A stretch of 64,000 nucleotides of DNA from Candidatus Edwardsbacteria bacterium (GTDB lineage Bacteria; Edwardsbacteria; AC1; EtOH8): positions 12,515 through 76,514 of the forward strand of contig JALOPJ010000001.1 of the NCBI GenBank assembly GCA_025453955.1, written 5' to 3'. Position numbers and translations under genes: made by a program. The notes under the pieces are model-generated. The model made no database searches. It worked only from the letters and a program-made list of their open reading frames with translations, and was not told the origin of the DNA. Positions within the stretch are counted from its first letter, which is position 1; each line of letters begins with the position of its first letter. This document shows, piece by piece, positions 17,602 through 49,716 of the stretch.

Positions 17602-18810
17602 TCAAACGCTGCCGGTCGCCGCAGCCGCGCCGTCGATCCGGCGCGCCGCCAGGGCCAATCCCAGCATCGTCCACATCACGGTCACCGGCACCGACGACCC
17701 GAAGTTGTACTCGGCCAGGCCCATCACCATGAACCCGACGGCGCAGGCCAGCCCCCCCCGGGCGACGGGCCGCAGGGCCGGGCCGGAAACGCGCAGCGCG
17801 GCCGCCAGCTCCCGGAAAACGGCGGTCCACATCAGCACGAACGCGGCCAGGCCGACGGCCCCGGTGGTGACGGCGAACTGGATGAAATTGTTGTGCAGAT
17901 GGCCGGTCGACATCGCGATCCCCCAGTAGGGATTGTCGCAGGGGATATGGCAATACTGGTCCTGCAGCGAGATCAGTCCGAACCCGGTGAGGGGACGCTG
18001 CTGGAAGAGGTGCCACCCCATCCGCCAGAGGTTGAAGCGGATCTGGAGGCTGACCGGCTTGTTGCCGGTGAAGAACAGCCAGGCTTCCATCGGCCGGTCC
18101 CGGAACGTCACCGCCAACAGGGCGACGGCGGCCAGCGCGACCGCGGCGACCAGCCACCACCAGCGCCGCCGGATCAGCAGCGTCAGCCCCGCCACCCAGC
18201 CGGCCCAGGCGCTGATCGTCTTGGTCAGCGCCAGCCCGGCGACGACGGCCGCACCGGCCGCGGCCAGCGCCCAGGCCCGGCCCCGCTGGCGGGCGGCGAT
18301 GCTGCCGGAGAGCAGCGACAGCGCCAGCAGCGCGGCCATCATGTAGATGCCGCCGGAGTGCATCGCGGTCGGCTGGGTCCCCAGCAGGCGCCCGTCGACG
18401 CCGATCGCGACCTTGGCCAGGCCGTACCCGGCGGTGAGCGCCGCCCCGGCCAGGAACGACCCGGCCAGCCAGCGCAGCTGCCGGGCGTCCTTGACCGCGA
18501 ACTGCAGCAGGTACACCGGCGTGACCAGGTAGAACTTCTTCAGCATCACGGCGCTGTCGGCCGGCCGCGGCGAGAACGCGGTCGCCAGCAGGCAGGCGGC
18601 CAGGAACAGGCCGAACCACTTGTCCAGCGGCGTGGCGAACCCCAGCCAGCGGCGCGACACCCCGCATTTCGCCAGCCAGAGCACGATCGCCACGAACAGC
18701 GAGATCTGGGTCAGCGCGATGCCGACCGTCAGGCTGAAGGCGAACAGCAGCAGGACGGCAGCGAGGACGCGGTCCAGCGCCCGGAGCGCGGCCGGGGCGG
18801 GCCCGGTCAT
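17602..18810 (-). CDS. waaL: O-antigen ligase family protein (WaaL/Wzy_C domain)
   Basis: 402-aa polytopic membrane protein with the Wzy_C signature (HLHNNFIQFAVTTGAVGLAAF) and a periplasmic loop. It is the last gene of the polysaccharide locus. Confidence 0.65.
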   Translation of the reverse strand: MTGPAPAALRALDRVLAAVLLLFAFSLTVGIALTQISLFVAIVLWLAKCGVSRRWLGFATPLDKWFGLFLAACLLATAFSPRPADSAVMLKKFYLVTPVYLLQFAVKDARQLRWLAGSFLAGAALTAGYGLAKVAIGVDGRLLGTQPTAMHSGGIYMMAALLALSLLSGSIAARQRGRAWALAAAGAAVVAGLALTKTISAWAGWVAGLTLLIRRRWWWLVAAVALAAVALLAVTFRDRPMEAWLFFTGNKPVSLQIRFNLWRMGWHLFQQRPLTGFGLISLQDQYCHIPCDNPYWGIAMSTGHLHNNFIQFAVTTGAVGLAAFVLMWTAVFRELAAALRVSGPALRPVARGGLACAVGFMVMGLAEYNFGSSVPVTVMWTMLGLALAARRIDGAAAATGSV

Positions 18811-19403
18811 GGCAGCTCGATCCAGTACTCATTCATGCGGCGGCCCTCCGGCGTCGCGTATTCGCGGCCCACGGCGAACCCGCAGCGCCGGTAGAATCCG
18901 TTGACGGCGTCGTTGCCGTCCCGGTCCGTCGTCAGGAAAACGCGGCGCGCCCCGCGGCGGACGGCCTCGTCCAGGAACGCCCGCACCAGCTCCCGGCCGG
19001 CGCCCCGGCCCTGCTCGCGGGGGTGGACGCCCAGCGAGAACAGCCCGGCGACCTCCCCGCCCGGCGGGTTGACCGAGGGCTGGCGCAGCGCCCGCAGCAG
19101 GCGCGGGACGACCGCCGGCCGCCGGACCACCGCCGCCAGCGCCGCCAGCCCGAACCGCAGCCAGTCCCGCCGCAGCAGCCCGGCATAGAAGCCCCGGGGA
19201 TCAGCCGCCCCTGCGACGAAGCCGGACGGACGCCCCCCGCCGTCCAGGTGCACGAAGGCGATCCCCTGCGGCGAGCGACAGACGCCCCGGTAGAACAGCG
19301 CCAGGAATCTGGTCCCCAGGGTGCTGAGGAAGAACCCGGGGAAACTGGCCTCGTGGACCGCCGCGATGTCGCGGCAGTCCACGGCCCTCATCGGGCGGAT
19401 CAC
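18807..19403 (-). CDS. GNAT family N-acetyltransferase
   Basis: Acetyl-CoA binding motif (QGRGAGRELVRAFLDEAVRRGARRVFL). Overlaps its neighbours by 4 nt. Confidence 0.7.
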   Translation of the reverse strand: MIRPMRAVDCRDIAAVHEASFPGFFLSTLGTRFLALFYRGVCRSPQGIAFVHLDGGGRPSGFVAGAADPRGFYAGLLRRDWLRFGLAALAAVVRRPAVVPRLLRALRQPSVNPPGGEVAGLFSLGVHPREQGRGAGRELVRAFLDEAVRRGARRVFLTTDRDGNDAVNGFYRRCGFAVGREYATPEGRRMNEYWIELP

Positions 19404-20632
19404 GGCCCGCCCCTCCCCGCCCGTGCCAGCAGCCGCTGGTAGGCGGCGGTGGCGGCGCGGCGCTCGCAGTACCGCCGCAGGAAGTCCCGGCCGTTGCGGC
19501 CCAGGCGGGCGCGGCGGGCACGGTCGCGGCGGAGCGCCAGGATGGCGTCCGCCAGCGCCGGCGCGTCACCGGGAGCGACCGTAATCCCGCAGTCCGCCCG
19601 TTCTATCAACGAGCGGGTGTCGCTGTCCGCGTCGACGCTGGCGATGACCGGGCGGGCAGCCGCCATGTACCCCAGCACCTTGCTCGGCACCGAGGTCCGG
19701 CCCATCCCCGGCCCCAGGGTGACCACCGATACGTCCGCGGTTGATTGCACCAGCGGCAGCAGCTGCCGCGGCTGGAAGGGGAGGAACACCATGTTGGCGA
19801 GTCGGCGCCGCCGGGCCAGGTCCCGGACCTCGTCCTTGGCCACCCCTTCGCCCACGAACAGGAAGACGATGTCGCGGTGGCGGGCGAGGCGTTCGGCGCA
19901 GTCGACCAGCAGGGCGGCCCCGGAGATCAGGCCGATGGTGCCGGAGTACAGCACCACGAACTTGCCGACCAGCCCGTGGGCGCGGGCGAACCGGTTGTCG
20001 CGGGGCGCCGGGGCGATCTCGGACGCGTCCAGCCAGTTGTAGACCAGGTCGACCTTGTCCGCCGGCTGGCCTTTGGCCACGATCGCGTTGCGGAACCCCT
20101 CGGAGATCACGGCGACCCGTCGCGCCCGGCCGTAGATCGCGCCCTCCAGCCGGCGCAGGGCCCCGATCAGGCGCTGATCGGTGATGACCCCGGCGTTGAC
20201 GGCCGCGTCGGGGTACAGGTCCTGGACGTTGAAGACGTAGGGCACGCCGCGCAGCCGCGACAGCGCGATCGCGATCAGCCCGTTGGTCAGCGGCGGCGAG
20301 GGCAGCAACGCCACGTCCTGCCGCGGCAGCCGCAGCGACGCCAGCAGCGCGGTGAGTCCGAAACTGGCGTAGGTCAGCACCCGCGACAGCGTCGTCCGGC
20401 GGGGGGAGGAGAATTGGTAGCAGCGCACCACGTCGACGCCGCCCAGCCGCTCCCGCCGCGCCAGGCGCTGCCGCCAGCCCGGGAACACCACGCCGGCGGG
20501 ATGGCTGGGGAATCCGGTGACCACGGTGACGCGATGCCCCCCCGCCGCCAGGTCGTCGGCCAGCTCCTTCATCATCACCCCGATCGGCGCGACCTCCGGC
20601 GGGAAGTACTGGCAGATGATCAGTATCCTCAT
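19400..20632 (-). CDS. Glycosyltransferase family 4 (GT-B, GT1-type)
   Basis: Start MRILIICQYFPPEVAPIGVMMKEL (verified at the cat at 20630-20632). The C-terminal EX7E-type region (GPGMGRTSVPSKVLGYMAAARPVIAS) is present. The track ORF carries an 80-aa spurious N-terminal extension. Confidence 0.8.
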   Translation of the reverse strand: MRILIICQYFPPEVAPIGVMMKELADDLAAGGHRVTVVTGFPSHPAGVVFPGWRQRLARRERLGGVDVVRCYQFSSPRRTTLSRVLTYASFGLTALLASLRLPRQDVALLPSPPLTNGLIAIALSRLRGVPYVFNVQDLYPDAAVNAGVITDQRLIGALRRLEGAIYGRARRVAVISEGFRNAIVAKGQPADKVDLVYNWLDASEIAPAPRDNRFARAHGLVGKFVVLYSGTIGLISGAALLVDCAERLARHRDIVFLFVGEGVAKDEVRDLARRRRLANMVFLPFQPRQLLPLVQSTADVSVVTLGPGMGRTSVPSKVLGYMAAARPVIASVDADSDTRSLIERADCGITVAPGDAPALADAILALRRDRARRARLGRNGRDFLRRYCERRAATAAYQRLLARAGRGGP

Positions 20633-20648
20633 CGCCCCCCTCGCTTCT

Positions 20649-21665
20649 TCATGGCGCGTCCCGTCCGGCCCCGGCGAATTTCCCGAGCTTCGCCGGCAGC
20701 CAGCGCCGGTCGAGCGCGGCGCCGATCTCCGCCGGCGTCGCCGTCCGCAGGGACTGGACGGCCTGGCGCTTGCGCCGGATCGACGGGAGTTGCCGCACCA
20801 GGTCCCGCTTGGCCCGCAGGAACGCATCCACCCTGCCGATCCTGGCGAAATAGGCGAAGCTGCCCAGCGCATAGGCCAGGTGCAGCGGCCCGTATCTTGC
20901 CAGCAACGCCGCCGGCATGTTCTTCAGGAACGTGGCGCTCACGTTCCGTTGGCCGTGGTACACGAATCCGGCGCTGTTGTGGACCTGGCTGAGCGACACC
21001 TTATGGTACACGCGGGCCGCCGGTTCGTTGACGATCCGATAGCCGGCCAAATGGGCCCGGAACGACCAATCCACGTCCTCGTAGCCGTTGAAGAACGCGT
21101 CGTCGAAGAATCCGATGGCATCGATCGCGGACCGCCGGTAGATGGCCGCGCAGGCCACGGCCACGAAGACATCGGCCGCGGCCGCCGTGGCGGGCCCGTC
21201 CGCCAGCCCGCTCCAGCGCGCCTGCACCGATCCGGCGACGGTGTAGGACGCCCCGGCGGCCCAGATGATGTGCGGCCGGTCGTAGTAGAGCACTTTCGAG
21301 TCGCAGGCGGCGATGCGGTCATCGGCGCTGATCCGGCGGTGCAGCGCGGCCAGCCAGCCCGGTTCCACCCGGGTGTCGTTGTTGAGCAGCGCGACGTACC
21401 TGCCCCGGGCCAGCGACAGGCCGGCGTTGTTGCCGGCGCTGAAACCGGTGTTGGACACCAGGCGCAGCAGCCGCACCCGGGGATGGTGCCGGGCGACCCA
21501 TGCGGCGGAACCGTCGGTCGAGCCGTTGTCGACCAGGATGGTCTCGCAGTCGCGGAACGATTGGGCCGACAGCGACCCCAGGCAGTCGCCGAGCAGCGCC
21601 CGCCCGTTCCAGTTGACGACGATGACGCTGATCTCAGGACAGGATGGCGGGGTGCGCATGCGCAC
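20649..21665 (-). CDS. Glycosyltransferase family 2
   Basis: ISVIVVNWNG, DNGSTDGS and a DxD-type region (LNNDTRV), the GT-A fold typical of rhamnosyl/glucosyl transferases. Confidence 0.8.
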   Translation of the reverse strand: MRMRTPPSCPEISVIVVNWNGRALLGDCLGSLSAQSFRDCETILVDNGSTDGSAAWVARHHPRVRLLRLVSNTGFSAGNNAGLSLARGRYVALLNNDTRVEPGWLAALHRRISADDRIAACDSKVLYYDRPHIIWAAGASYTVAGSVQARWSGLADGPATAAAADVFVAVACAAIYRRSAIDAIGFFDDAFFNGYEDVDWSFRAHLAGYRIVNEPAARVYHKVSLSQVHNSAGFVYHGQRNVSATFLKNMPAALLARYGPLHLAYALGSFAYFARIGRVDAFLRAKRDLVRQLPSIRRKRQAVQSLRTATPAEIGAALDRRWLPAKLGKFAGAGRDAP

Positions 21666-22881
21666 GCTCCGGAACAGGTTGAACGGCGCCCCGGGCCCTG
21701 GCGAGGCCGCTGCGGGATCGGCATTGTTCGGACCAGAAGAAGACGACTGCCAGCATCCCGGTAGAATTGAACAGCAGGGGGTTGCTGCCGGCGATGACCA
21801 GATATGACGAAAGCCCTACCAGGATGAATCCGTTGGGAGGGCCGAACGGGGCGATCAGGAGCAGCAGGAAACAGAGGCTGCCGGCGAGGCCGAAATAGCG
21901 CACCATGTCGAGATAGGTGAGCTCCGTCTGATAGACCTCCTGCTCGACGCCCGGAGCAGCGCTGAAATACGAGGCCCCCAGTCCGTCCCCTGTCAGCAGC
22001 ACCGTCGGTTGTTCATCGATGTGGGCGATGAATGACCTGGCGTGCGCTATTTTCACGGAGTTCGATCGCTCGACGGCCGAGAACAGCGAAGTCCGTCTGA
22101 GTGCGATCAGGGCCGGGACGGAACAGGCCATCGCGACGAGCAGCGTCCCGGCGACCAGCCACGGCCTGCGTTTGACCGCCACCAGAATGCACGCCACGCT
22201 TTCCAGCAGCAGGACGAGGAGCAGTGCCCTTGAGGCCGACAGGATTGCCGCTGCGACGATCAGAAGCAGGAACAATGTCGCGCCGATCCTGGCGCCGGCG
22301 CCCGTGCGCCGGCCCACGATCGCGGCGATCAGGGACGGCACCGGCACGGCCAGGAGCGGCGACGTGACGAAGAAGATCATCATCAGATCCAGTCCCGCGA
22401 AGCTCCGGGAACCGATCAGCGCCACGTTGTGATCGATCAGGAACACGGAGACCCGTTGCTGGAGGGTCGGGTCCACGATCGATCCCAGGCCGAGGCCGAT
22501 GGTGCTCAGCGCCAGCAGCCCGGTCCAGAGAAAGACGGGCCGTCGCAGGTCGATGCCCAGGGCGACCACCGGCAGCACCAGGGCCACCGCCCACAACGCC
22601 TTGGCCAGCGACAGCCCGTCGGCGATGCTCTGCCCGGGATGGCGGATGACGAAGACGGCCATCGAAACGGCGGGGAACGCGACGGCGATGCAGAGCACGC
22701 GGAGCAGCAGATCCCGCGGCACGGTCACCCGGTCGAGCGCAATCAACGCCAAAAATAGGGACAGGATGACCGCGAAGACCGTGGGCTTCATTCCCGCGAC
22801 GCTGTCCGAAGGGTCGAAGACCGCGATCCCGCAGTAGAGAGCGGTAAACAGGGCGATGGCCGGAACGAGCAGCCGCTTCAT
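21634..22881 (-). CDS. Polytopic membrane protein, O-antigen polymerase (Wzy)-like
   Basis: 415 aa with about 10-12 TM helices and a large loop, no soluble domains, embedded among GT genes. Function assigned from context only. Confidence 0.45.
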   Translation of the reverse strand: MKRLLVPAIALFTALYCGIAVFDPSDSVAGMKPTVFAVILSLFLALIALDRVTVPRDLLLRVLCIAVAFPAVSMAVFVIRHPGQSIADGLSLAKALWAVALVLPVVALGIDLRRPVFLWTGLLALSTIGLGLGSIVDPTLQQRVSVFLIDHNVALIGSRSFAGLDLMMIFFVTSPLLAVPVPSLIAAIVGRRTGAGARIGATLFLLLIVAAAILSASRALLLVLLLESVACILVAVKRRPWLVAGTLLVAMACSVPALIALRRTSLFSAVERSNSVKIAHARSFIAHIDEQPTVLLTGDGLGASYFSAAPGVEQEVYQTELTYLDMVRYFGLAGSLCFLLLLIAPFGPPNGFILVGLSSYLVIAGSNPLLFNSTGMLAVVFFWSEQCRSRSGLARARGAVQPVPERAHAHPAILS

Positions 22882-23738
22882 CGGTGCTCACGGTTTGCCA
22901 GGACGTCGGACAGGTGCCGCAGGGTCAGGCGGGACAGCACCCGATCCCCGGCCAGGGCTTGCCGGCAGGCCCGGGCCGCCACAGCCAACAGATGGTAGAT
23001 GAAGTCGACCTTGCGGCAACAGGTCCGGTAATACCGGGTCTCCGCCCGCAGCACCGACCGATACCGCCCCGGGGTGACCCGACGCAGCCGTTGTCCGATC
23101 GAGAGGTCGTGGCCCACCACCGCCTCGGTGGCGTAGACCGTCCGCCCCTGGCGGCGGACCATGGCGAACAGCCAGTGGTCCAGATAATCCAGCGGGAACG
23201 CCTCGTTGAAACCGCCCAGATCTGCCATGAACGACGTCCGGATGAGGGTGCCGGAATTGATGGCGGTCACCGTGCCCCGGAGGACTCCCGCCGCGGTCCC
23301 GGCCAGCGGCCGGATCATCCCCCCCCACCGCAGCCGGGCGGGTGAGACCGGTACGCCGTGGTCGGCAACCCTGGGCACGACCGCCACCGTTCCCGGTCCG
23401 ATCGTTTCACCTGCCCGCCGGGTGACGGCGAGGAACCGGTCCGGCAGCGAGGAATCCTGGTCGAGCAGCAACAGCCATTCGTATCGACCGGCCGCGGCCA
23501 TCGCCAGCGCGCGGTTATACGCCCTGGCCAATCCGCCGTTCGATGGGTCGTGCAGGTACTGGTGCTCGAACGGCAACGCCACCGTCATGTCCTGGGCGGC
23601 CGGGCCGTTGTCATGGATGACCAGCGTCAGCCGCGGCCGGTCCTGCGGACAATGCTCCCAGGATCGCACCAGGGAAGCGATTGTGGATGACTCGTCAGGC
23701 CGGCATTGGTACAAGACCACCACGGCGATGATGTTCAT
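22878..23738 (-). CDS. Glycosyltransferase family 2 (rhamnosyltransferase-like)
   Basis: Start MNIIAVVVLYQCRPDESSTIASL (ATG at 23738; the track ORF extends to 23765), with a DQD motif (LLLDQDSSL). Confidence 0.75.
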   Translation of the reverse strand: MNIIAVVVLYQCRPDESSTIASLVRSWEHCPQDRPRLTLVIHDNGPAAQDMTVALPFEHQYLHDPSNGGLARAYNRALAMAAAGRYEWLLLLDQDSSLPDRFLAVTRRAGETIGPGTVAVVPRVADHGVPVSPARLRWGGMIRPLAGTAAGVLRGTVTAINSGTLIRTSFMADLGGFNEAFPLDYLDHWLFAMVRRQGRTVYATEAVVGHDLSIGQRLRRVTPGRYRSVLRAETRYYRTCCRKVDFIYHLLAVAARACRQALAGDRVLSRLTLRHLSDVLANREHR

Positions 23739-24595
23739 CCTCTGCCCCGGGCCTTGCCGATGCAAGCCGCTATCGTCTGCATCATGGTCCGCTTGCGGGG
23801 CAGGCCGGCGATCGCGTCCTCCCGCTCCCGGATCGCTTCATCGATGGCCGGCTGACAGTCGGGGCGTCCCAGGTGGTCCGACAGCAGCCGCAGCATCTCG
23901 ATCTCGCGCAGCCATTTCGACATGGCCGGCGCCCCGCCCCAGGCCCCGGTCTGATGGATCCGGTAGACGGCCATCGTCTCGTTGATGAAACCGATCTTCC
24001 CGTGCCGGGCCGCCAGCACGAAATAGGGCCAGTCGAGGGGCGTGACCCGATCGAACCACGGCGGCAGCACATCGGACCGATGGTTGCGGACCATGCATGA
24101 CGCCGTGTAGATGAAGTTGCGCCGGCACAGGTCCGCGATGGTCAGGGTTGGGGCCAGGCGGCCGCTGGAGCGCCGGCGCCTGAAGAGGTTCGCGACGGTC
24201 CGGGGGTACGACAGGACCACGCGGTGGAAGCACAGCGCATAGTCCGGATTGGCCTCCAGGAAGTCCACCTGCTGCTGCAGCTTGTCGGGATCGGTCCAGT
24301 AGTCGTCGCCTTCCAGACATGCGATGTATCTCCCGGTGCATAATGGCAACGCAGACTCGTACGCATTGCGCATGGCCCCCACGTTCTTTGTCTGGCAGAC
24401 CGCGGTGATCGCACCCGGATGGGTGGCCTGGTATCGCTTGACGATGTCCGTCGTGCCATCGGTCGAGCAGTCATCACCGATGACGAGTCGGTAATCGAAG
24501 CTGGTCCGCTGCATCAACACGCTTTCGATCGCCCGAGCGATGTACCTCGCATGATTGTAGGTGACCATCCATACGCTGACCATGGGCTCGGCCAC
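23735..24595 (-). CDS. Glycosyltransferase family 2
   Basis: VSVWMVTYNHARYIARAIESVLMQ, DDCSTDGT and a DxD-type region (LEGDDYW). Confidence 0.8.
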   Translation of the reverse strand: MAEPMVSVWMVTYNHARYIARAIESVLMQRTSFDYRLVIGDDCSTDGTTDIVKRYQATHPGAITAVCQTKNVGAMRNAYESALPLCTGRYIACLEGDDYWTDPDKLQQQVDFLEANPDYALCFHRVVLSYPRTVANLFRRRRSSGRLAPTLTIADLCRRNFIYTASCMVRNHRSDVLPPWFDRVTPLDWPYFVLAARHGKIGFINETMAVYRIHQTGAWGGAPAMSKWLREIEMLRLLSDHLGRPDCQPAIDEAIREREDAIAGLPRKRTMMQTIAACIGKARGRG

Positions 24596-25278
24596 TAGTA
24601 CAGCCCCCCGTTCACATCGATGCTCGTCCCGGTGATATAGCCGCAGCTGATCAAGTACTTGATCGTTGTCAGGATCTCCGATGGCTCGCCCAACGCCCTG
24701 GACGGGATGGCCCGTTTCACCTCTTCCCGCAATTCCGTCGGCACATCACTGATCATCCCGATGTCGAAATATCCCAGGTTGATGTTGTTGATGGTGATAC
24801 CCCGGTCTGCGTTTTCCGCTGCGATCGCCCTGGTCATCCCCCATAATCCTGCCTTGGAGGCGGCGTACGCGCTCGTCCCGGGCACGGCTTTCTGGGCGAC
24901 GACCGATGACAAGTTAATGATCCTCCCGTAGCGTTGCTCCCGCATCATCGGCAACAAGGCGTTGATGACGTGGAAGGTCCCCACCAGGTTGACCGTGATC
25001 AAACGGGCCCACCGCGCCGGGTCCGCCTTGTGCGCCAGCGCGTTGTAATTCACGCCGGCGCAATTGATCAGCACCATCTTGCTGCCGTTGCGCTTTTTGA
25101 TGGCGGCCGCGAAGGCCGCGACATCCGCTGGATCGGCGACATCGACCCGGCGCATCGAGCCGACGTTTTTGTTCGGCGCCGTGCTGTTGAAAAGGCCGAT
25201 GACATCCTGCTCCTCACGGATGAATTCCCCCATGAGGTACAGCCCGATGCCCTTAGATGCGCCGGTAATGATGATCAT
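24595..25278 (-). CDS. Short-chain dehydrogenase/reductase (FabG-like 3-oxoacyl reductase)
   Basis: Start MIIITGASKGIGLYL (cat at 25276-25278), catalytic YxxxK (YAASKAGL) and NAG motif (NNAG...). The track ORF has a 55-aa spurious extension. Confidence 0.8.
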   Translation of the reverse strand: MIIITGASKGIGLYLMGEFIREEQDVIGLFNSTAPNKNVGSMRRVDVADPADVAAFAAAIKKRNGSKMVLINCAGVNYNALAHKADPARWARLITVNLVGTFHVINALLPMMREQRYGRIINLSSVVAQKAVPGTSAYAASKAGLWGMTRAIAAENADRGITINNINLGYFDIGMISDVPTELREEVKRAIPSRALGEPSEILTTIKYLISCGYITGTSIDVNGGLY

Positions 25279-25300
25279 GGTTGGCACCTTGCATTGGATC

Positions 25301-26844: not shown

Positions 26845-26848
26845 GTCG

Positions 26849-31907: not shown

Positions 31908-32879
<972 letters not shown>

Positions 32880-36127: not shown

Positions 36128-36189
36128 TCGGTGATGCTGAGCAGTGGCAGGTGTAGCCACCCGGCATGCTGGCCGGTGCGTAGTGCCGC

Positions 36190-36924: not shown

Positions 36925-37070
36925 TTTGTCCTGTGATCCAAGAAGATTTATCACTCCGCATCGGCTGCGGCAACCCCGGCTGGGTCGCCTCGTGATGCAC
37001 TTTGATGACGGTATTGATGAACAGCCGTGTGACCGTCGCGACATCATCGCGGATGGTCGATGAGCGTTGA

Positions 37071-40584: not shown

Positions 40585-40588
40585 CGGT

Positions 40589-41545: not shown

Positions 41546-41548
41546 CGT

Positions 41549-42274
41549 TCACTCCTTGGTTTCGATGAGGTCGTGGAGGCGGCTGACGTCGAGCGATGTG
41601 TCGACCGGGACCTTGAAGTCGACATCGTTGATCGACAGTGGCTCGATGACCCTGGCCGGGTCGAGCGAGTGCGCATATTCCATAACGGTCTTGCGCTTGC
41701 CACCAACATGTACGGTGCCGGACGCGTCCTTCTCCAGCAGCGCGACGATCATCCGGGCAATCGTCCGTACCGGCTCGCGGCTGGTCCATTGATCGGTGAA
41801 CGCCTTATCGTACGGGAAAACATTGGGGCCGAACGTCGTTCTTATAATCAGCGACTTGTCGTACAGCCGGACGGCGCATTCGCCGCCCAGTTTGGACCAG
41901 GCGTACTTGTTGACCGGGTAAACCGAATCGTCCTCGGTGTAGTTGCCCCGGTCCCCACGGAACACGTAGTCGGTGCAGATATAGGCAAGCTTGAGTCCGT
42001 GCTTCATGCACAGCTTGACCACGCTGGCTGTCCCCGCGATGTTGACGTCCAAGGCTTGGAGCGGGTCCTGGTCTATCTTGGGGGGCGAGACGAAGGCTGC
42101 GGCATGAAGCATCAGCGAGAACGCGCGCCCCTCCAGGTACCGGTCCATCTGGCAGTAGTTGGTTAGGTTGAAATCAGCCTCTGACGGGTAGTCTGCCTCC
42201 GGCAGGAGTTTCCGGATCTCGCCGCCGAGCAAGCCGCTGCCGCCCGTCATGATCATCGTCGACTGGTCGAACAT
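41549..42274 (-). CDS. dTDP-4-dehydrorhamnose reductase-like NAD(P)-dependent oxidoreductase
   Basis: Start MFDQSTMIMTGGSGLLGGEI (cat at 42272-42274), YxxxK (YAWSKLGGE), RmlD-like size after trimming. The track ORF has a 71-aa spurious extension. Confidence 0.65.
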   Translation of the reverse strand: MFDQSTMIMTGGSGLLGGEIRKLLPEADYPSEADFNLTNYCQMDRYLEGRAFSLMLHAAAFVSPPKIDQDPLQALDVNIAGTASVVKLCMKHGLKLAYICTDYVFRGDRGNYTEDDSVYPVNKYAWSKLGGECAVRLYDKSLIIRTTFGPNVFPYDKAFTDQWTSREPVRTIARMIVALLEKDASGTVHVGGKRKTVMEYAHSLDPARVIEPLSINDVDFKVPVDTSLDVSRLHDLIETKE

Positions 42275-42324
42275 GTCGTCGCCACCCTGTGCTGGTTGAT
42301 GCATTGCCGGTGTCGCTGGTCGGG

Positions 42325-43173
42325 TCACCCGGTTCGCCCCATGGTCGCCATCATTCGCCCGATGACCTCCTGCCAATCGACGGCCGGGGCCAGACCAGTC
42401 GTTTCGAGATGGGTTCCCAGCGCCGGCATCGGGACCCACAGCCGGCGCCGGCTTCCGAGCAGGATGTACGGCCAGCAGTACAGCCATGCCTTAATGATGA
42501 TCCTGAACACGCCGCTCCCGGACAGAGCGTGGCGAACGAAGCTGCCCGGACCCAGCTGGTGCTTCGTCATGCCGAGCCATAGGCTGGCGTCGTCGTTTCC
42601 CCGCGCGAAGCTAAGAACACAACGACGTGTTCGCCGCAGTGTGGCTTTCGTTGTCAGGAATGTAAGACAAGTCGAGTTGGCGGTCCTCCAGTGGCGGCCG
42701 CCATGCACGCAGATGTGGCTCGGGTGGTCGTGCAGCGGTGCCGTGTAGAGGTCGATGTGGTCATAGGCCGAGATGAAATCCGCATCGGTCCGTGCGCGCA
42801 GGAACCCGACCATGTCGACGAGCGCGTTCGGAAGGTAGAGGTAATCGTCCTCGGCAACATACACGACTTCGGAGCACTCCTGCGCGAGTAACGACTTGAC
42901 CTGCGTCGCGAACGTCGCCCTGTTCCCGATGGCATCGGTGTTGATCACCGTGAGGTCGGCGGCGGCGAATGAAGCCCGGAACAGCTCTTCGTACGCCGGC
43001 GGGCAGCCGTCGAGGATGACAATCATCTTAGCACGCAGCGAACCGAGCGCCCCCAGCAGCGACCGCAGGCACAGCCGGACCAGCGCGAGCTTGTCGTCCG
43101 CGTGAGCCAGCGGCCGTTTCGAGATGGACGGGCAGACGCGATATGCGATGGCGATATCGTAGTGTCTATCCAT
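42325..43173 (-). CDS. Putative glycosyltransferase (nucleotide-diphospho-sugar transferase-like), uncharacterised
   Basis: 282 aa with IAIAYRVCPS...MIVILDGCPPAYEELF...VYVAEDDYLY (DD motif). The assignment is tentative. Confidence 0.4.
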   Translation of the reverse strand: MDRHYDIAIAYRVCPSISKRPLAHADDKLALVRLCLRSLLGALGSLRAKMIVILDGCPPAYEELFRASFAAADLTVINTDAIGNRATFATQVKSLLAQECSEVVYVAEDDYLYLPNALVDMVGFLRARTDADFISAYDHIDLYTAPLHDHPSHICVHGGRHWRTANSTCLTFLTTKATLRRTRRCVLSFARGNDDASLWLGMTKHQLGPGSFVRHALSGSGVFRIIIKAWLYCWPYILLGSRRRLWVPMPALGTHLETTGLAPAVDWQEVIGRMMATMGRTG

Positions 43174-44449
43174 GCGCGACCGTCCCTGGGGCCTTTCCCG
43201 TCGCGGTGTCGAGCAGACAGCGCTCCAATCGCACCGTCGCCTGCGTCAGTGTCCATCGCCGCTCGACCTCGGCCAGCCCCTGCTTGCCCATTACGTCACG
43301 CAATCGTCCGTCGCTTACCAAGCGCCCGATGCCAGCCGCCATTGACTCCGGGTCCGGTGCCACCAGCAGCCCGTTCTCCTGGTCGACGATCGTCTCCCGC
43401 ACGCCCCCCTCCGCGGCAGCGACCACGGGGATCCGGCAGGCGTTTGCCTCGAGGGTGACATACCCGAACGGCTCCAGCCGCGGGGCGTAGACGGCGAATA
43501 GTGCACCGTTGTAGAGCTCGACCAGCTCCCGGTCAGGGACGTTCACCCTGATGTCGATCGAGATGCCGTGGTCGTGCGCATAGCGGATGACCTCATCCCG
43601 GTAGTCCGGGTCGAAGCCGTTCGCAACACACACCAGCGCGGGCCGGTCCCGCTTCAGGGAACGGAGCGCTCGCAGCAGGAACATGGTGTTCTTCAGCGGA
43701 TTGACGGAACCGACAGTGATGACGTACGCGCCCTTGCCGACGGTTGCGACCGGGCGGAACAGTGAGGTATCAACCCCCAGATAGCAGACCGTCGCATCCA
43801 GCCCGTACGCTCGCAGCGTGCTCTCCCGCGAGAAATATGAATTGACCAGGATGGAATCGAAGGCCGCCGCGTTGTCGTGCTCTTCCCGCGCCTGCACCCG
43901 CAGGTAATGGATCCGTAACTGGTCCTCGGCTCGCTCGCAAAGATGCCGGACGGGATTACTCCCGGCACGGAAGGGTGGCGGCGCCTTCCACGGCAGTACC
44001 GGCACCGCCTCGTACAGCGCCCGGTTCGGTTCCTGCAGGTACAGCACCCTGGGCAATGTTGCATAGCGCCCGATGTAGGGCGCGGACATCACGGCGCAGG
44101 GATGGGCGAGCAGGACATCGAACCCACCATCGTCGATCTCTCGGGCGCACGTCCGACCGTGGCGCCCCAGCGTATCGAACGACCGCCACTTACGGGACAG
44201 TTTCCGGGCCGCACCGGCGATCGCCCCGGCAGAGATGTTCCCCCACTCGATGCGCCGAGGAACCTCCTCCCATGCCAACGGCCGGACGTGTTCCGGGATC
44301 AGCTGCCGCAGCGACAGGTAGTCGACCGCCGCCGTCGTGGGGCACCATGCCGCGACAAGGTGGCCCCGCGCCAAGAGTCCCTTCACCTGTTGGTGCAGCG
44401 CTCGTTTGCCGCCGCCGCTTGGCAGGTTGTGCCAGATCGCTATCCTCAT
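43166..44449 (-). CDS. Glycosyltransferase family 4 (GT1-type)
   Basis: Start MRIAIWHNLPSGGGKRALHQQVKGL (cat at 44447-44449), plus a C-terminal EX7E-like region (EPFGYVTLEANACRIPVVAAAEGGVRE). Confidence 0.75.
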   Translation of the reverse strand: MRIAIWHNLPSGGGKRALHQQVKGLLARGHLVAAWCPTTAAVDYLSLRQLIPEHVRPLAWEEVPRRIEWGNISAGAIAGAARKLSRKWRSFDTLGRHGRTCAREIDDGGFDVLLAHPCAVMSAPYIGRYATLPRVLYLQEPNRALYEAVPVLPWKAPPPFRAGSNPVRHLCERAEDQLRIHYLRVQAREEHDNAAAFDSILVNSYFSRESTLRAYGLDATVCYLGVDTSLFRPVATVGKGAYVITVGSVNPLKNTMFLLRALRSLKRDRPALVCVANGFDPDYRDEVIRYAHDHGISIDIRVNVPDRELVELYNGALFAVYAPRLEPFGYVTLEANACRIPVVAAAEGGVRETIVDQENGLLVAPDPESMAAGIGRLVSDGRLRDVMGKQGLAEVERRWTLTQATVRLERCLLDTATGKAPGTVAHG

Positions 44450-44472: not shown

Positions 44473-45732
44473 TCAGAGCCAGCGGTCCTTCACAAGATAG
44501 ATCCCCTGCTGCCTGACGAAGACCACCATCAGGACCAGCACGCACAACTCCGACAACATGAATACGGACGCCGTCCCGATCCCTTTGAAGAACGGCACGA
44601 CGACCAGTGCGGTGGCCACCGAGACGATCCCAGCAGCGACGATCGCGGTCATGAACTTGCGCGCCTGCCCGATGTTGATCAGCACCTGCGTCCCATAGAG
44701 GTTGTCAATGAAGATCGTCAGCGGGGCAAGAGCCATGATCCGGACCATTGCCGCGATCGCCGGGTCGTCACCGCCTGCGACGATCCGGACGAGCAAATCC
44801 GCCCCCACGATGACGGCTGCGCAGATCACACCGAACAACACTGCCCCGTAACGCAGCACCCTGCGCATCACCGCCACCGCTTCGGTGGTCGACTGTTCGA
44901 ACAGCGCGCTGGCTTGCGGAAAGAGCGCCGTACTGATCGGGGTACAGACATTGATGAATATCCGGACGATCTTCTCCGCGATCGCGAACGCCCCGACGGC
45001 CTGGTTGTTCGCGAACATACCGAGAATGATCACGCCCGTATTGTTGACAAGCGTCGAGGATAAGATGGAGACGAACACCACCCACCCCTCCGACAGCAGC
45101 TTCCGGATCTCGGCTACGGACGGCAGGTACCATCGGATCGGATACCAGCGCGCGACCAGGCCGAGGGCCACCAGACCCGAGAACACAACACTCGAAGACT
45201 GGAGCAGAACCGCGGTGTGCAGCCCGTCTGGGCCCTTGACGAACAGCAGCAACGCCACCGTGAAAATGACCTTGCTCGCAAGATTGATCAGGGACAGGAT
45301 CTTGATACGTTCGATGCCCTGGAAGTACCAGACCGGAAAAAGAAAATTCCCGAGAACGGCGATGTAAGCGATCAAATAAGTCGCCCACTCCGGCCGTAGC
45401 CTGGGCAGCGCTAGTACGACCGTGGTGAAGATGGCGAACCCCGCGATCAGCAAGAAGAGTTTGATAATCATGACCGACCAGAAGGTCGACGCCAGCTGTT
45501 GCGGGTCCTGGCGCTGGATGGCGATCCGACGCGTTGCGCTGAGGTTGAATCCGTAATCGACGAAAACGACGAAGTACTGCACCAATGCCATGGCGTACGA
45601 CATCAGGCCGAAATTCCCGACGCCCAACATCCTGACGAGGTACGGGAACGACACCAACGGGATGACGTAGTTGGCGAACTGCACCACCATCAGCGACGAC
45701 AGGTTCTCAAAGAACCGCTTCTTCCTCGACAT
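44473..45732 (-). CDS. wzx: Wzx-type polysaccharide flippase (MOP superfamily)
   Basis: Start MSRKKRFFENLSSLMVVQFANYVIPLVSFPYLVRMLGVGNFGL (cat at 45730-45732), 419 aa, 12 predicted TM helices. The track ORF has a 62-aa spurious extension. Confidence 0.8.
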   Translation of the reverse strand: MSRKKRFFENLSSLMVVQFANYVIPLVSFPYLVRMLGVGNFGLMSYAMALVQYFVVFVDYGFNLSATRRIAIQRQDPQQLASTFWSVMIIKLFLLIAGFAIFTTVVLALPRLRPEWATYLIAYIAVLGNFLFPVWYFQGIERIKILSLINLASKVIFTVALLLFVKGPDGLHTAVLLQSSSVVFSGLVALGLVARWYPIRWYLPSVAEIRKLLSEGWVVFVSILSSTLVNNTGVIILGMFANNQAVGAFAIAEKIVRIFINVCTPISTALFPQASALFEQSTTEAVAVMRRVLRYGAVLFGVICAAVIVGADLLVRIVAGGDDPAIAAMVRIMALAPLTIFIDNLYGTQVLINIGQARKFMTAIVAAGIVSVATALVVVPFFKGIGTASVFMLSELCVLVLMVVFVRQQGIYLVKDRWL

Positions 45733-45748: not shown

Positions 45749-47137
45749 TCAGGAGGTGGCGGGCGACACAACGATGCCCATCTGATCCGCATTGCGGGCG
45801 AAACGGATGGCGATCGCGTACAACGTCCAGAACAGCATCCCATAGTGGTAGAGCGGGAGCGTCGCTTCCATTTGGCTGTTCGCCAGCGCGACCAAGTACG
45901 GCAGCATGAGCAACGCATACAGCGCCCTGCCCTGCTGCGGGTCGTCCCGCAGCAGCCGGGCGTTTCTCACCACTGGAATGGCGAGTAACACCAGCAAAAT
46001 GATGATCGCGATTCCGCCGATATCGACACCGTACCGCAGGAAGAGATTGTGAGGGTCCGTCTGCGGCAGGAAGAAGTCGTTGTAGCGGTACTGGTCTGGC
46101 CCCACCCCGATCAGCGGGTGGCGACGGATCGCCAGCAATGCATCCCTGATCATATACATGCGGGATAGCATTGAAAGGTCAAACTTGAGATCCTTGAAAC
46201 GCTCGATCAGCGCCAACAGCGATTTCTGCAGGACAACGCCCAGGACGAAGACACCGATCGCGGCGGTGGTCGCCCACTTCGCGATGTTGATCCTACGTTC
46301 CAGCAACGCCCGGAAGGCGACGAACATGCCAGCTCCGGCCACGAGGCTGATGATCGCGCCCCGAGAGACGATGACCAGTGCGATGCCGACCAGCATCGTG
46401 GCGATCGTATAGTAGAGGAGCCTGACCACTGCACGTTGTCGCTTGATAAGTGGGTTGGGCAGGATCATGGCTGCGATCAGCACCGCGATGGCGGCGAGGG
46501 TGTTTGAGCGGGTCCAGCCGAGATCGAAACCGTAGCGATATGTGACCCAGTGATGCTCGGAGACGATGGTGTTGACGAGGTTGAGCGCTATCACCTGGAC
46601 GATCATCCATGCACCGGCGAACGGTACGTACACCGTGAAGAACCGGCGGCATCCGGCGGCACTGACAAAGTCGTCCTGGAACAGCACGTACAGTGACAAC
46701 GGCAACGCGAACGCGTACTGCATGCCGTGGATACCCTTGCCGACATCGTTCCATCGCGGTATCGTCAACACCGTCACCAACGCCATCGCGGCCCACGACA
46801 GCACGACTGCATCGATCCGCAGCAGCGGCCGCCGCATGAGGAACCGACGGAGCAGCGCCAGCAACAACAGGAAGTAGATGATCGGGTTCCCGAACTTGTG
46901 CGGCAGGTCGGAAAAATTGGTCAGGATGCCGACGAAGAGCACAGCATCGGGTGCCGCCAGGCACAGGAAGCCGATCAGCGGCGCGGCCAGCAGGCCGAGC
47001 AGCACGAAACCTGCGGTGAACTGGTTGATAGCGAATAGGACGACCGCGCCGCACCCCAGCAGCGCTGCCCCGCCATACAGCGCGCGGCGTACGTCCACAA
47101 CCGGTAATCCAGCGCTGGTTACTATGTTCGCGGCCAT
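45749..47137 (-). CDS. wzy: O-antigen polymerase (Wzy)/O-antigen ligase-like membrane protein
   Basis: 462 aa, polytopic, with a large periplasmic loop. Positioned between wzx and wzz as in Wzy-dependent loci. Confidence 0.55.
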   Translation of the reverse strand: MAANIVTSAGLPVVDVRRALYGGAALLGCGAVVLFAINQFTAGFVLLGLLAAPLIGFLCLAAPDAVLFVGILTNFSDLPHKFGNPIIYFLLLLALLRRFLMRRPLLRIDAVVLSWAAMALVTVLTIPRWNDVGKGIHGMQYAFALPLSLYVLFQDDFVSAAGCRRFFTVYVPFAGAWMIVQVIALNLVNTIVSEHHWVTYRYGFDLGWTRSNTLAAIAVLIAAMILPNPLIKRQRAVVRLLYYTIATMLVGIALVIVSRGAIISLVAGAGMFVAFRALLERRINIAKWATTAAIGVFVLGVVLQKSLLALIERFKDLKFDLSMLSRMYMIRDALLAIRRHPLIGVGPDQYRYNDFFLPQTDPHNLFLRYGVDIGGIAIIILLVLLAIPVVRNARLLRDDPQQGRALYALLMLPYLVALANSQMEATLPLYHYGMLFWTLYAIAIRFARNADQMGIVVSPATS

Positions 47138-47158
47138 CGGTGGATCATCTTGTCCCTT

Positions 47159-48355
47159 TTAGCGGGTGCCGCGCAGCTCCTCGACGAATCGTCGGACCAG
47201 CGTCCGGTGACGCTCGTCGTCCGAAAACCGCTGCCACCAGAACGAGTACGCCGCGACGATGATGCCGACAAAAATACCGACGAAAGCGGACAACGCAACG
47301 ATCGGCAGGCGTTTGGGCCAACTCTTGCGATACGGCGGGGCCGCCCGCTCCAGGAACTGGACTTTTGGCGTGTCCTTGGCCTCCAAGATCTTCGCCTGCT
47401 CCAACTGCTGCATCAGTAACGCATACAGCTCCTGATGGATCCTTACGTCCCGAGTCAGCTGCCCCAGCATAATCCCAATCTCCGGTGCCTTGGCAAAGGA
47501 AACGAACAACGTCTTCCCCCGCCCCCCGGCGACTAGCGTGTTCAGCTCCTGCTGCGACTTCGCAATCTGGTTCTCGAGGACCTTCACCTGGGTGTTGTCA
47601 TCGGTCGCATACGATTTGAGGGCGTCCAGTTCGATCTTCTGGCCGATGATCTTGGCTTCCAGCGTCGCGGTCATCTCGACCAGGGCCTTCATCTCATCTG
47701 GCAGTGAAATCGTCTTGTACCGCTGCTGGAACTGCTTGAGCGAATCCTCGGTCTGCTGCAGCAGCGACTCCTCCTGGAGCAGGCGTTTCTCGATGAACTC
47801 CCGCATCTTGCCGCCTTGGGTCATGGTCATCTTCGCATAGACACGGTCCAAGGCCTCGCCGTAAGCGTTAGCAATATCGGCGGCCTTGGTTTTACTCTTA
47901 TCCTCGACCGTGATGGTAATGAACCGCTCGTCGGTGACATTGATGACGGTGGCCCGTTTCAACCGTTTGGCGACGTTGTCCATCGCCTTATCCTGCCGCT
48001 TTGCGAACGCCCTGTCCTGCTTGTAATGATTGACCAGGCCGCACTCACCGATGACGATGCTGGCGACCGTTCCGCTCCTCAGCATGTAGGCGAACACGTC
48101 GGATGGTGTGATCATCCCTGGCATGAAACCGGTACCGCCGATCTCGGGATCGGACATCAGGCTGGTTCGGCTCATCAATGACATGAGGCTGGCACCCTGC
48201 GAGACCGGCGGCATCAGCGTAGCAGTGGCCTTATACTTCTTTGGGATGGCCAAGCTCATCGCCAATCCGAACGCCGTAAAACCGATGGTCGTCCACATGA
48301 TCAGCCTGCGGTTCCTTGCAAACGCAAGCAGCATCTCGTACATGCTGTTGAACAT
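47159..48355 (-). CDS. wzz: Polysaccharide co-polymerase / chain-length determinant (Wzz/GumC family)
   Basis: N-terminal TM (LIMWTTIGFTAFGLAMSLAI), a long coiled-coil periplasmic domain, and a C-terminal TM (LPIVALSAFVGIFVGIIVAAY). Confidence 0.75.
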   Translation of the reverse strand: MFNSMYEMLLAFARNRRLIMWTTIGFTAFGLAMSLAIPKKYKATATLMPPVSQGASLMSLMSRTSLMSDPEIGGTGFMPGMITPSDVFAYMLRSGTVASIVIGECGLVNHYKQDRAFAKRQDKAMDNVAKRLKRATVINVTDERFITITVEDKSKTKAADIANAYGEALDRVYAKMTMTQGGKMREFIEKRLLQEESLLQQTEDSLKQFQQRYKTISLPDEMKALVEMTATLEAKIIGQKIELDALKSYATDDNTQVKVLENQIAKSQQELNTLVAGGRGKTLFVSFAKAPEIGIMLGQLTRDVRIHQELYALLMQQLEQAKILEAKDTPKVQFLERAAPPYRKSWPKRLPIVALSAFVGIFVGIIVAAYSFWWQRFSDDERHRTLVRRFVEELRGTR

Positions 48356-48363
48356 GACCCCTC

Positions 48364-49296
48364 CTACTGCACTCGTGCAACTTGCCAGACGATGAAGCCC
48401 ATCGTCGTCACCTGGGCCAGCAGGTTGATGTAGTCGCGCCAGCCCTTGATCTGCATCTCGCCCACCACCACCACGTCGCCGGGCTCCATGGTGGTGCTTT
48501 CCTTCCCCTTCACCGCCTTGCCGCCCCAGCGGTTGATCCTGATGTTCCCGGTGCTGGCGCGCTCGGCGTAGCCGCCGGCCATGCCGATGTAGTAGGACAG
48601 CAGGGTGCCGGGCTCGAACGGGAAGGTGCCGCCCTTCTGCACCTGGCCCACTACCGTGATCGTGGTCGGCGTGGTCGGCACGGTGATGATGTCGCCCTCC
48701 TGCAGCGGGATGTCGAGCGCGGGATCACGGTCGATGGAAAGCCGCTTGAAATCGATGCTGATCACGCTGTCCAGCCGGGCGATGTTCTGGACCTTGATGT
48801 TCTCACGGGTGGCGATGGGCGTGAATCCCCCGGCCATCACGATCGCGTCCATCAGCCGCTCGCCCTGCTTGATCTCGTACTTGCCGGGCCGGAACACCTG
48901 GCCGGCGATGGTCACCATGTTCTCGGCCAGCGGAAAGAACACGATGTCCCCGTCCCTCACCTCGGGGTTCTCCTCCTGCCGGTTCTGGGTCATATACCGG
49001 TAGAGGTCGAGCGTGTCGATCGGCTGGCCGCCCCGGATAAGCACCACCGAGCGGATCGAGGCCTGCTCGTTGGGGCCGCCCGCGACGCCCACCGCGTTGG
49101 CCACGCGGTCGTAGGCCTGCAGGGTGTGGAGACCGGGGTTGCGCACCTGGCCCAGCACCTGCACCTTGATCGCCGGGCGTTCCCGGGTCCAGTCCAGGCC
49201 GGTCTGCTGGACGATCGTCCGCTGCGACAGCGCCGGTGCGGCCAGGACGAGCATCGAGGCTATCACTGCGACAATAATGGTAGAGCGTCTCATCAT
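48364..49296 (-). CDS. wza: Polysaccharide export protein (Wza family; Poly_export + SLBB domains)
   Basis: Signal peptide MMRRSTIIVAVIASMLVLAAPALS. Motifs VQVLGQVRNPGLHTL and TVVGQVQKGGTFPFEPGTLLSYYI are SLBB-like. Start at the cat-cat at 49291-49296. Confidence 0.8.
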   Translation of the reverse strand: MMRRSTIIVAVIASMLVLAAPALSQRTIVQQTGLDWTRERPAIKVQVLGQVRNPGLHTLQAYDRVANAVGVAGGPNEQASIRSVVLIRGGQPIDTLDLYRYMTQNRQEENPEVRDGDIVFFPLAENMVTIAGQVFRPGKYEIKQGERLMDAIVMAGGFTPIATRENIKVQNIARLDSVISIDFKRLSIDRDPALDIPLQEGDIITVPTTPTTITVVGQVQKGGTFPFEPGTLLSYYIGMAGGYAERASTGNIRINRWGGKAVKGKESTTMEPGDVVVVGEMQIKGWRDYINLLAQVTTMGFIVWQVARVQ

Positions 49297-49687
49297 GATA
49301 TCCATGTGATACTGCTGTTTGATTGATCCTTGATACCGACAGGTCATTTACCGGGGATGGCCGTGCCTCCCGATACATCCGCCGCAGGTCGAGTGGCCGC
49401 CATCTCGATACGAACCGGTCACGGTCCTACTCGATGTGCGGCTGTATCGAGACCCGGCGGACTACTCGAGGCACGGCCCGGTTCAGCAACAAAAACCGGG
49501 CGACCGTCAGACGGCGCCCGGCAAAGGAATGCGAGGTCCTTTGTCTCCAAAGAAGCTTGGATACGGCGCGCCGTGCCAAAGCGGGGTTTCGAGCAATCCC
49601 GAGCTTTCGAAGGTATGTCAGAATGTCCGAAAACCGCCGACTTTAACGCTCTCGCCCGTACGCTCCCTTGGATTGATAATTGCCGAT

Positions 49688-49716
49688 ATTTTACACCAGA
49701 ATGCCTGATTTGTCAA
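49688..49716 (-). promoter_or_regulatory. Near-consensus sigma70 promoter for the polysaccharide locus (wza operon)
   Basis: Minus strand: TTGACA (plus tgtcaa at 49711-49716) - 17 nt - TAAAAT (plus atttta at 49688-49693). It is followed by a roughly 385-nt leader before wza. Confidence 0.5.

Follow-up and report, generated by a model that had tools for sequence, protein, structure and literature searches.

In Escherichia coli, the his operon has as neighbours two loci in tandem, one for capsule or colanic acid and one for O-antigen (PMC6128206). Here we describe a polysaccharide locus of comparable layout in a 64,000-nucleotide stretch of DNA (the window) of contig JALOPJ010000001.1, from assembly GCA_025453955.1 of a Candidatus Edwardsbacteria bacterium. 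The locus, at positions 17602-49347, consists of 30 tightly packed minus-strand genes, as judged from the open reading frame (ORF) listing and third-position GC; the count becomes 31 if a 61-aa ORF at 36908-37093, proposed by the JGI gene caller, is added. An earlier interpretation, made from the letters and their reading frames (the sequence-only reading), had placed a single polysaccharide locus behind a promoter and had offered two explanations for it, two fused Wzy-dependent pathways or one very complex repeat unit. The locus and its promoter-like site at 49716-49688 are borne out, and the modular synteny of related loci favours the first explanation. We read the locus as two separable Wzx/Wzy-dependent glycan modules arranged head to tail, probably behind one strong promoter, and give this reading a probability of roughly 0.7.

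Several features are shared with the tandem loci of E. coli and Klebsiella. The two Wzx/Wzy-dependent clusters share a strand and a head-to-tail orientation, with a histidine biosynthesis gene adjoining. The first cluster (module 1, 49347-33709) contains a wza-like gene, a polysaccharide co-polymerase (PCP) gene and a WbaP/WcaJ-type transferase gene, and the second (module 2, 33656-17602) is O-antigen-like; variable centres are combined with conserved export genes. Unlike in those loci, the Wzb/Wzc kinase-phosphatase pair and Wzi are missing, the conserved leader is of another kind than JUMPStart, a short Wzz (258 aa) stands at the start of a module and a WaaL-type gene is located inside the cluster. 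In E. coli, waaL belongs to the core locus. As the Edwardsbacteria lineage is unrelated to the enterobacteria, the tandem layout appears, by this analogy, to be convergent with theirs and to have arisen independently.

The beginning of module 1 also resembles group 1 capsule and exopolysaccharide (EPS) export systems, such as Methylobacillus Eps and the PEP-CTERM-associated EPS systems, in starting with an outer-membrane polysaccharide export (OPX) protein of the SLBB type and a PCP with Wzz and GNVR domains. The best NCBIfam matches of these two proteins are EpsE (OPX) and EpsF (PCP), both far below cut-off, and module 1 includes an EPS-type phosphoglycosyl transferase (TIGR03025). The arrangement of a capsule locus beside an O-antigen locus, known from enterobacteria and found here in an unrelated lineage, is largely ordinary, and the understanding of the Wzx/Wzy pathway as it stands is not overturned. 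What the locus provides is a picture of surface-polysaccharide genetics, and a first view of the cell envelope, for the uncultured Edwardsbacteria/UBP2-like lineage (a literature search on Edwardsbacteria/UBP2 returned only papers on yeast Ubp2). It also provides three leads: the short Wzz family, a Wzx-methyltransferase pair that is fused here, and a conserved structured leader possibly controlling the operon.

Separability of the two modules

The two-pathway reading is favoured because the tandem is conserved in relatives, module 2 occurs alone in two of them and module 1 has a boundary of its own. The relatives are metagenomic loci, numbered with an L. L118 belongs to GCA_002412795.1 (230-kb contig) and L117 lies on a 262-kb contig; L119 and L120 derive from one organism (4,640 nt overlap at 100%), and L121 and L122 extend only 10 kb upstream. 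In L117 and L118, module 2 stands alone with thrS directly before it, its proteins being 41-80% identical to those of the window; the Wza/PCP/Wzy/Wzx set of module 1 is not seen within 10 kb upstream. The order in L118 is Fcl-like, short Wzz, Wzx, a separate methyltransferase, a variable sugar cassette (DegT, hexapeptide acyltransferase, FabH and a short-chain dehydrogenase/reductase, SDR) and then GT2, GT2-like, Wzy-like, GT2, GT4, GNAT and WaaL-type, with a 184-aa phosphoglycosyl transferase and PglF/E-like genes next. In L117, the Fcl-like gene is absent from the position it has in L118.

The tandem of both modules is also present in L119/L120, where Wza-like, PCP, Wzy, Wzx, glycosyltransferase and WbaP genes are directly followed by the short Wzz gene and module 2, and in L121 and L122, where the junction is seen from the last glycosyltransferases and WbaP on into the short Wzz gene and module 2. 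The conserved flank and the leader of module 1 are present in L123 and L124. In L123 (PCP 73% identical), the upstream flank corresponds gene for gene to that of the window up to the DAO gene, the leader, Wza-like, PCP, Wzy and Wzx genes follow as in the window, and an SDR and WbaP form the end; the glycosyltransferase set enclosed by them is unlike that of the window. Module 1 has conserved ends and a variable centre, like serotype-variable loci; in module 2 the sugar cassette varies and the tail is conserved. On the other side of the locus, the hisC boundary is not conserved, as far as a single distant data point goes: a genome scan with hisC found the order hisC-cmk-plsC-ispH-rpsA in only one relative, UBA4780 (L003, 70% identity), where GroEL and a radical-SAM gene, and not the polysaccharide locus, stand before hisC. 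By hisC, this genome (UBP2_UBA4780, 70%) is the nearest species representative, followed by Poribacteria at about 50%.

The second copies of the Wzx/Wzy/Wzz machinery are genuine, though calling them duplicated, as the sequence-only reading did, is misleading. The two Wzx proteins share 26% identity over just 76 residues, and BLASTP finds no similarity among the three Wzy_C proteins; judged by sequence, the paired components are not recent duplicates.

An alternative is that all 30 genes serve one pathway and one very complex polymer, with WbaP starting one repeat unit, either large or branched, and the two Wzx/Wzy sets acting on the main chain and on a side-branch or sub-unit. Its main argument is that WbaP is the sole Bac_transf homologue, and so the only phosphoglycosyl transferase, in the window; the tight packing, the lack of a predicted internal promoter or terminator and the tandem order kept in several relatives are also in keeping with it. 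A single pathway does not easily accommodate L117 and L118, which carry module 2 alone after thrS, nor the complete Wzz/PCP-Wzx-Wzy set in each module. Moreover, module 2 of the relatives has a small phosphoglycosyl transferase of its own, located after the WaaL-type gene together with PglF/E/D-like genes in five of them. We regard one complex polymer as decidedly improbable.

Some observations weigh against two independent modules. No promoter or terminator is predicted between them, the intermodule gap being 52 nt, and the counts of promoter-like and terminator-like sequences within the locus are not above shuffle expectation. The Wza-like protein has no Pfam Poly_export match, and neither a tyrosine kinase domain in the PCP nor a kinase partner was found among the locus proteins, in both of which module 1 differs from the EPS systems; a bacterial tyrosine kinase (BY-kinase) was likewise not found in the L119, L123 and L124 loci. 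A nucleotidyltransferase or a clear 4,6-dehydratase was not found in the locus. A second Bac_transf homologue and PglF/E/D-like genes do not follow module 2 here, hisC being directly next. As the window contains only one phosphoglycosyl transferase, module 2 may draw on WbaP or a distant gene, and the independence of the modules in this organism is blurred.

Module 1 and its upstream region

The coordinates of all locus features are collected in Table 1. The Wza-like protein contains three SLBB stretches, matches EpsE in part and is 57% identical to its L119 homologue; the PCP has 135 homologues, many of them with an Edwardsbacteria label. With only 23% identity to its L119 counterpart, the Wzy of this module is a variable gene, and the gene content of the module centre (36190-44449) is unlike that of L119 and L123. 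The WbaP-type transferase, with a TIGR03025 score of 369.8 bits (cut-off 295.55), is found in the same place in L119/L120, L121, L122 and L123; the SDR epimerase ahead of it is shared, among the relatives, only with L123. A metagenome scan with WbaP returned 30 loci, at no more than 54% identity and with synteny limited to WbaP. By analogy, module 1 would build undecaprenyl-diphosphate-linked repeat units, started by the WbaP-type transferase, which would then be flipped, polymerised and exported across the outer membrane by the OPX/PCP pair. The product would be a capsule or an exopolysaccharide; this label, like that of O-antigen for module 2, is suggested by gene content.

Table 1. Features of the polysaccharide locus and its flanks, listed in the direction of transcription of the locus; positions are those of the window.
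Feature	Positions	Strand	Remarks
Upstream flank: DAO-type oxidoreductase, RmlC-like protein, SDR, pyrimidine nucleoside phosphorylase			
Promoter-like site TTGACA-17-TAAAAT	49688-49716	-	11 of 12 consensus positions matched
Structured untranslated leader	49486-49687	-	About 190 nt; terminator-like hairpin at its end
Imperfect palindrome	49357-49478	-	About 120 nt; between leader terminator and wza-like start codon
Wza-like OPX protein, SLBB type	48364-49347	-	SLBB 107 bits, SLBB_2 73 bits
PCP, Wzz and GNVR domains	47159-48355	-	Two transmembrane segments; both domains above gathering scores
Wzy-type polymerase candidate	45749-47137	-	Wzy_C 54.9 bits (gathering 31.7); about 11 predicted hydrophobic segments
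Wzx flippase 1	44473-45732	-	Polysacc_synt (PF01943) 173.9 bits; start refined to 45732
GT4	43166-44449	-	Pfam; module 1 variable centre
Unknown protein, EDDY motif	42325-43173	-	Module 1 variable centre
RmlD-like reductase	41549-42304	-	Pfam; module 1 variable centre
SDR epimerase	40589-41545	-	Pfam; module 1 variable centre
Unknown protein	39583-40584	-	Module 1 variable centre
GT4	38363-39586	-	Pfam; module 1 variable centre
GT4	37071-38297	-	Pfam; module 1 variable centre
FkbM methyltransferase	36190-36924	-	Pfam; module 1 variable centre
SDR epimerase	35142-36128	-	3' end of module 1
WbaP-type polyprenyl-phosphate glycosylphosphotransferase	33709-35088	-	Bac_transf 223 bits; CoA_binding_3
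Short Wzz/PCP-superfamily protein, 258 aa	32880-33656	-	First gene of module 2; transmembrane segment at each end
GDP-L-fucose-synthase-like (Fcl-like) epimerase/reductase	31908-32870	-	NF047922 309 bits, below cut-off 500
Wzx flippase 2 fused in frame to zinc ribbon and S-adenosylmethionine (SAM) methyltransferase, 745 aa	29660-31897	-	
DegT/DesI-like aminotransferase	28488-29600	-	TIGR04427 311 bits, below cut-off
WbqC	27796-28491	-	Cassette
Unknown protein, 316 aa	26849-27799	-	Cassette
GNAT	26290-26844	-	Cassette
FabH-type ketoacyl synthase (KAS) III	25301-26293	-	Above NCBIfam cut-offs
FabG-like reductase	24595-25278	-	Cassette
GT2	23735-24583	-	Pfam; close counterpart only in L114-L116, L118
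GT2-like	22878-23738	-	Start of conserved six-gene tail
Divergent Wzy_C (Wzy-like) protein, 415 aa	21634-22881	-	23.1 bits, below gathering 31.7
GT2	20649-21659	-	Pfam; conserved tail
GT4	19400-20632	-	Pfam; conserved tail
GNAT	18807-19403	-	Conserved tail
WaaL-type Wzy_C protein	17602-18810	-	Wzy_C (PF04932) 68.7 bits
Downstream flank: hisC, cmk, acyltransferase (plsC), ispH, rpsA			hisC 67 nt after last locus gene

The 438-nt gap ahead of the first locus gene contains the promoter-like site, from where both modules may be co-transcribed; its two hexamers are identical in L123, L124 and L119. The leader that follows ends in a hairpin at about 49488-49522, GCCGGGCGCCGUCUGACGGUCGCCCGG followed by UUUUU, and further copies can be sought with the sequence tag AAGGGAGCGTACGGGCGAGAGCGTTAAAGTCGGCGG. 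The stretch from promoter-like site to start codon (49345-49685, 341 nt, leader included) folds at -163.9 kcal/mol, with z = -6.3 versus shuffles. The leader DNA is 93-95% identical to that of L123 and L124, where the adjoining PCP is only 73-84% identical. In the distant L119, the short leader hairpin retains 5 of 7 pairs through compensatory changes, and the terminator stem also persists. A scan of the leader against Rfam 15 gave no family at gathering score (best E-value 0.64), and JUMPStart was not matched; 6S RNA and the known riboswitches, having no Rfam support, were rejected as its identity.

The most economical reading of the leader, from a comparison that covers four sequences, is that of a putative cis-acting attenuator or antitermination target. 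Its near-invariance, the intrinsic terminator at its end and the lack of an Rfam family make it a possible new cis-regulatory RNA. Such an RNA could gate the entire 32-kb double locus in Edwardsbacteria, as an attenuator resembling a riboswitch or as an element for processive antitermination.

The core of the palindrome located between leader and coding sequence (82 nt) is inverted relative to L123 and L124, with 94% identity on the opposite strand and an alignment score of 146 for the reverse complement versus 48 for the forward orientation. Inverted repeats and opposite orientations recall the invertible promoters of the Bacteroides capsule type, but no recombinase is seen near the locus. 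Palindrome-like pieces are present at unrelated sites of L003 (11667-11760 and 4911-4940), which suggests a dispersed element resembling repetitive extragenic palindromic (REP) sequences; a role as phase-variation switch was downgraded on account of these pieces. The palindrome could be a REP-like element, one related to miniature inverted-repeat transposable elements (MITE), or an invertible segment.

Of all locus genes, that for the FkbM methyltransferase, in the variable centre, has the lowest GC (0.54; 0.64 at third codon positions, GC3). The gaps on either side of it, 146 and 61 nt, are among the largest in the locus, and the gene may have been inserted recently. The 61-aa ORF mentioned above overlaps the gap upstream of it. 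The two unknown proteins of the centre, like the 316-aa protein of the module 2 cassette, have no Pfam or NCBIfam match even at E = 5; the EDDY motif in the larger-numbered of the two (42325-43173) is DxD-like.

Module 2: head, cassette and conserved tail

The 258-aa protein with which module 2 begins is itself not matched by Pfam Wzz. Its family, assembled by an exhaustive HMMER search of 1.84 billion proteins, has 14 cluster representatives, all of 208-275 aa, of which 13 contain Pfam Wzz (PF02706) and six contain GNVR. Compared with solved structures, the family profile finds Wzc (best E = 6e-10), FepE and WzzE, the matches covering the first transmembrane segment with the Wzz motif and the approach to the second transmembrane segment; the PCP of module 1 is recognised as well. 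Homologues are located before Wzx 2 in L115-L122. Sequence comparison identifies the protein as a short member of the Wzz/PCP superfamily. Like the PCP-1 regulators WzzB, FepE and WzzE, and like the periplasmic domain of Wzc, it has a transmembrane segment at each end. Classical Wzz proteins are about 325-380 aa long; unlike them, the protein is about 100 residues smaller and belongs to a very restricted family.

The Fcl-like enzyme encoded next is 80-83% identical to its counterparts in L118 and L115. The following gene encodes the 745-aa fusion, with the methyltransferase at the C-terminus of Wzx 2, in which Polysacc_synt_3 (PF13440) scores 302 bits and the methyltransferase domains match too. 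Among the best 119 other Wzx 2 homologues listed, all are 477-508 aa long and have no methyltransferase domain. In L114-L116 and L118, Wzx 2 and methyltransferase are encoded by separate genes with a 4-nt overlap, and in the other relatives seen the two genes are adjacent or overlapping; the fusion still holds the former start methionine of the methyltransferase internally. The flippase predicted by the sequence-only reading is real and carries, in addition, a fused enzyme. The termini of Wzx are cytoplasmic, in line with the topology of MOP (multidrug/oligosaccharidyl-lipid/polysaccharide) flippases; this is consistent with a fusion that methylates the lipid-linked unit immediately before it is flipped.

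The composition of the cassette that follows (24595-29600) differs among L114, L118 and L120. Its aminotransferase is DesI/VioA-like and would form an NDP-4-amino-4,6-dideoxyhexose. A 3-hydroxyacyl group would come from the FabH-type condensing enzyme and the FabG-like reductase, and its attachment would be carried out by GNAT here and by the hexapeptide acyltransferase in L118. The expected product is an N-(3-hydroxyacyl)-type 4-amino-6-deoxy sugar. For WbqC, a literature search returned no functional study. The 316-aa protein contains a K-x6-DGG motif reminiscent of DegT enzymes, its similarity to them being insignificant; a single-sequence AlphaFold model of it reached a pLDDT of 34 and was not used.

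The six genes of the tail, from the GT2-like to the WaaL-type gene, are 40-66% identical across L117, L118, L120 and L114. By analogy, this part of module 2 would polymerise the unit and ligate it onto an acceptor such as lipid A-core, giving an O-antigen-like product. The Wzy-like protein belongs to a family of 18 clusters, in which 12 of 16 members match Wzy_C and no other Pfam family is found. An AlphaFold model made from the family alignment (pLDDT 83, pTM 0.82) has, in a Foldseek search, the WaaL ligase of Cupriavidus metallidurans (7TPG) as its best solved structure (probability 1.00, TM 0.51), followed by FtsW and RodA, the remainder being noise. The two share the Wzy_C/SEDS-like fold at an identity of only about 16%. 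Compared with the two remaining Wzy_C proteins of the locus, the family profile gave nothing significant, and among solved structures nothing useful. Family and model together identify the protein as a divergent but genuine member of the Wzy_C/WaaL fold. For the last protein of the locus, WaaL 7TPG is the only solved structure matched by sequence (E = 2.9e-4), which agrees with the WaaL-type ligase that had been named for this position, its ligase role remaining a prediction. For these Wzy_C proteins, neither sequence nor fold separates ligase from polymerase (or oligosaccharyltransferase) activity.

If the second copies were decayed or unrelated membrane proteins, one functional pathway would be left. 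The Wzy-like protein, scoring under the Pfam gathering threshold, and the 258-aa protein, with its missing Pfam Wzz match, might be taken in this sense. Both families are, however, conserved with intact reading frames in many genomes, family and fold comparisons assign them to the Wzy_C/WaaL and Wzz/PCP superfamilies rather than among unrelated transporters, and their third-position GC of 0.84-0.88 is typical of coding sequence. We consider decay largely refuted and extremely improbable.

The tail of module 2 might instead belong to another glycoconjugate system, for example protein O-glycosylation or a common-antigen-like glycan, with the WaaL-type protein acting as an oligosaccharyltransferase and not as a lipid A-core ligase. 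Downstream of the Wzy_C gene, the relatives always have the small phosphoglycosyl transferase, accompanied by PglF/E/D-like genes of the type that serves bacillosamine-type sugars. The Wzy-like protein and the proteins around it are more conserved than is usual for O-antigen genes, and the RfaL equivalog scores only 27 bits on the WaaL-type protein, versus a cut-off of 277. In L122, a 590-aa protein (14069-15841) fuses the WaaL-type protein to the small phosphoglycosyl transferase (Wzy_C and Bac_transf), connecting the first step of the lipid-carrier cycle with the last. The Pfam domains specific for PglL are PglL_A and Wzy_C_2. None of these was reported on the WaaL-type protein at E <= 0.01, Wzy_C (PF04932) alone being found, and its one structural match by sequence is to WaaL. 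The presence of Wzz and Wzy-like proteins fits a polymerised O-antigen, and the Kdo (3-deoxy-D-manno-octulosonic acid) transferase gene near the L117 locus makes lipopolysaccharide (LPS) likely in the lineage. On balance, a glycoconjugate system of this kind is unlikely, and an O-antigen-like product of module 2 is preferred.

The Kdo transferase gene of L117 (Glycos_transf_N, 1-1185) is a few kb upstream of module 2 and suggests LPS production in this lineage.

A bolder proposal takes the tail of module 2 for a glycoconjugate system of a kind not described before, with initiation and final transfer physically coupled. Its parts would be the short Wzz, the Wzx-methyltransferase pair or fusion, the Wzy-like protein and the WaaL-type protein, which is sometimes fused to a phosphoglycosyl transferase. 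This proposal and that of a new regulatory RNA in the leader of module 1 are speculative, and we put them forward tentatively.

Layout, flanks and other features of the window

After refinement of the starts, the largest gap between locus genes is 146 nt, and 4-nt overlaps, as anticipated from the sequence, are present at exactly eight junctions. That the locus lies on a single strand is correct, all its genes being on the minus strand; it is not a property of the locus, as the minus strand holds almost all credible genes (third-position GC >0.8) of the window, both housekeeping flanks included. The G+C content of the window is about 70%. Exact protein matches locate its DNA in two metagenome assemblies, JGI 3300037461 (contig Ga0392394_0000332) and Logan SRR12684589. 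Module 1 genes have a GC of 0.54-0.66 and a lower GC3, with flanks at about 0.70; the composition of the locus is a mosaic and agrees with the two-module structure.

Pfam and NCBIfam annotation of the genes bears out nearly all assignments of the sequence-only reading. Two Wzx flippases, two Wzy-like proteins (one by Pfam, the other by family and fold), a Wzz/PCP with a short Wzz-like protein, WbaP and an Fcl-like enzyme, if below its equivalog cut-off, are all present. So are three further SDRs, two methyltransferases (FkbM and the domain fused to Wzx 2) and an acyl-modification block of DegT, WbqC, the 316-aa unknown protein, GNAT, FabH and the FabG-like reductase. The count of 10 or more glycosyltransferases was too high: Pfam supports seven (four GT4 and three GT2, one GT2 weak), and two unannotated proteins could raise the number to nine.

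Three observations concern the rest of the window. The subtilase at 10491-12239 (minus strand) has a FlgD-Ig domain and a weak match to a C-terminal sorting domain of the Por/type IX secretion system (T9SS), and hints at such a system in this lineage. The overlapping minus-strand frames 55761-57809 and 56122-61839 span a region encoding a multi-PAS/GAF histidine kinase, the L123 counterpart of which is one protein of >1,643 aa; the overlap may be due to a frameshift or a shadow ORF. For the window as a whole, Rfam gave a single match at gathering score, a tRNA gene at 3768-3851 (minus strand).

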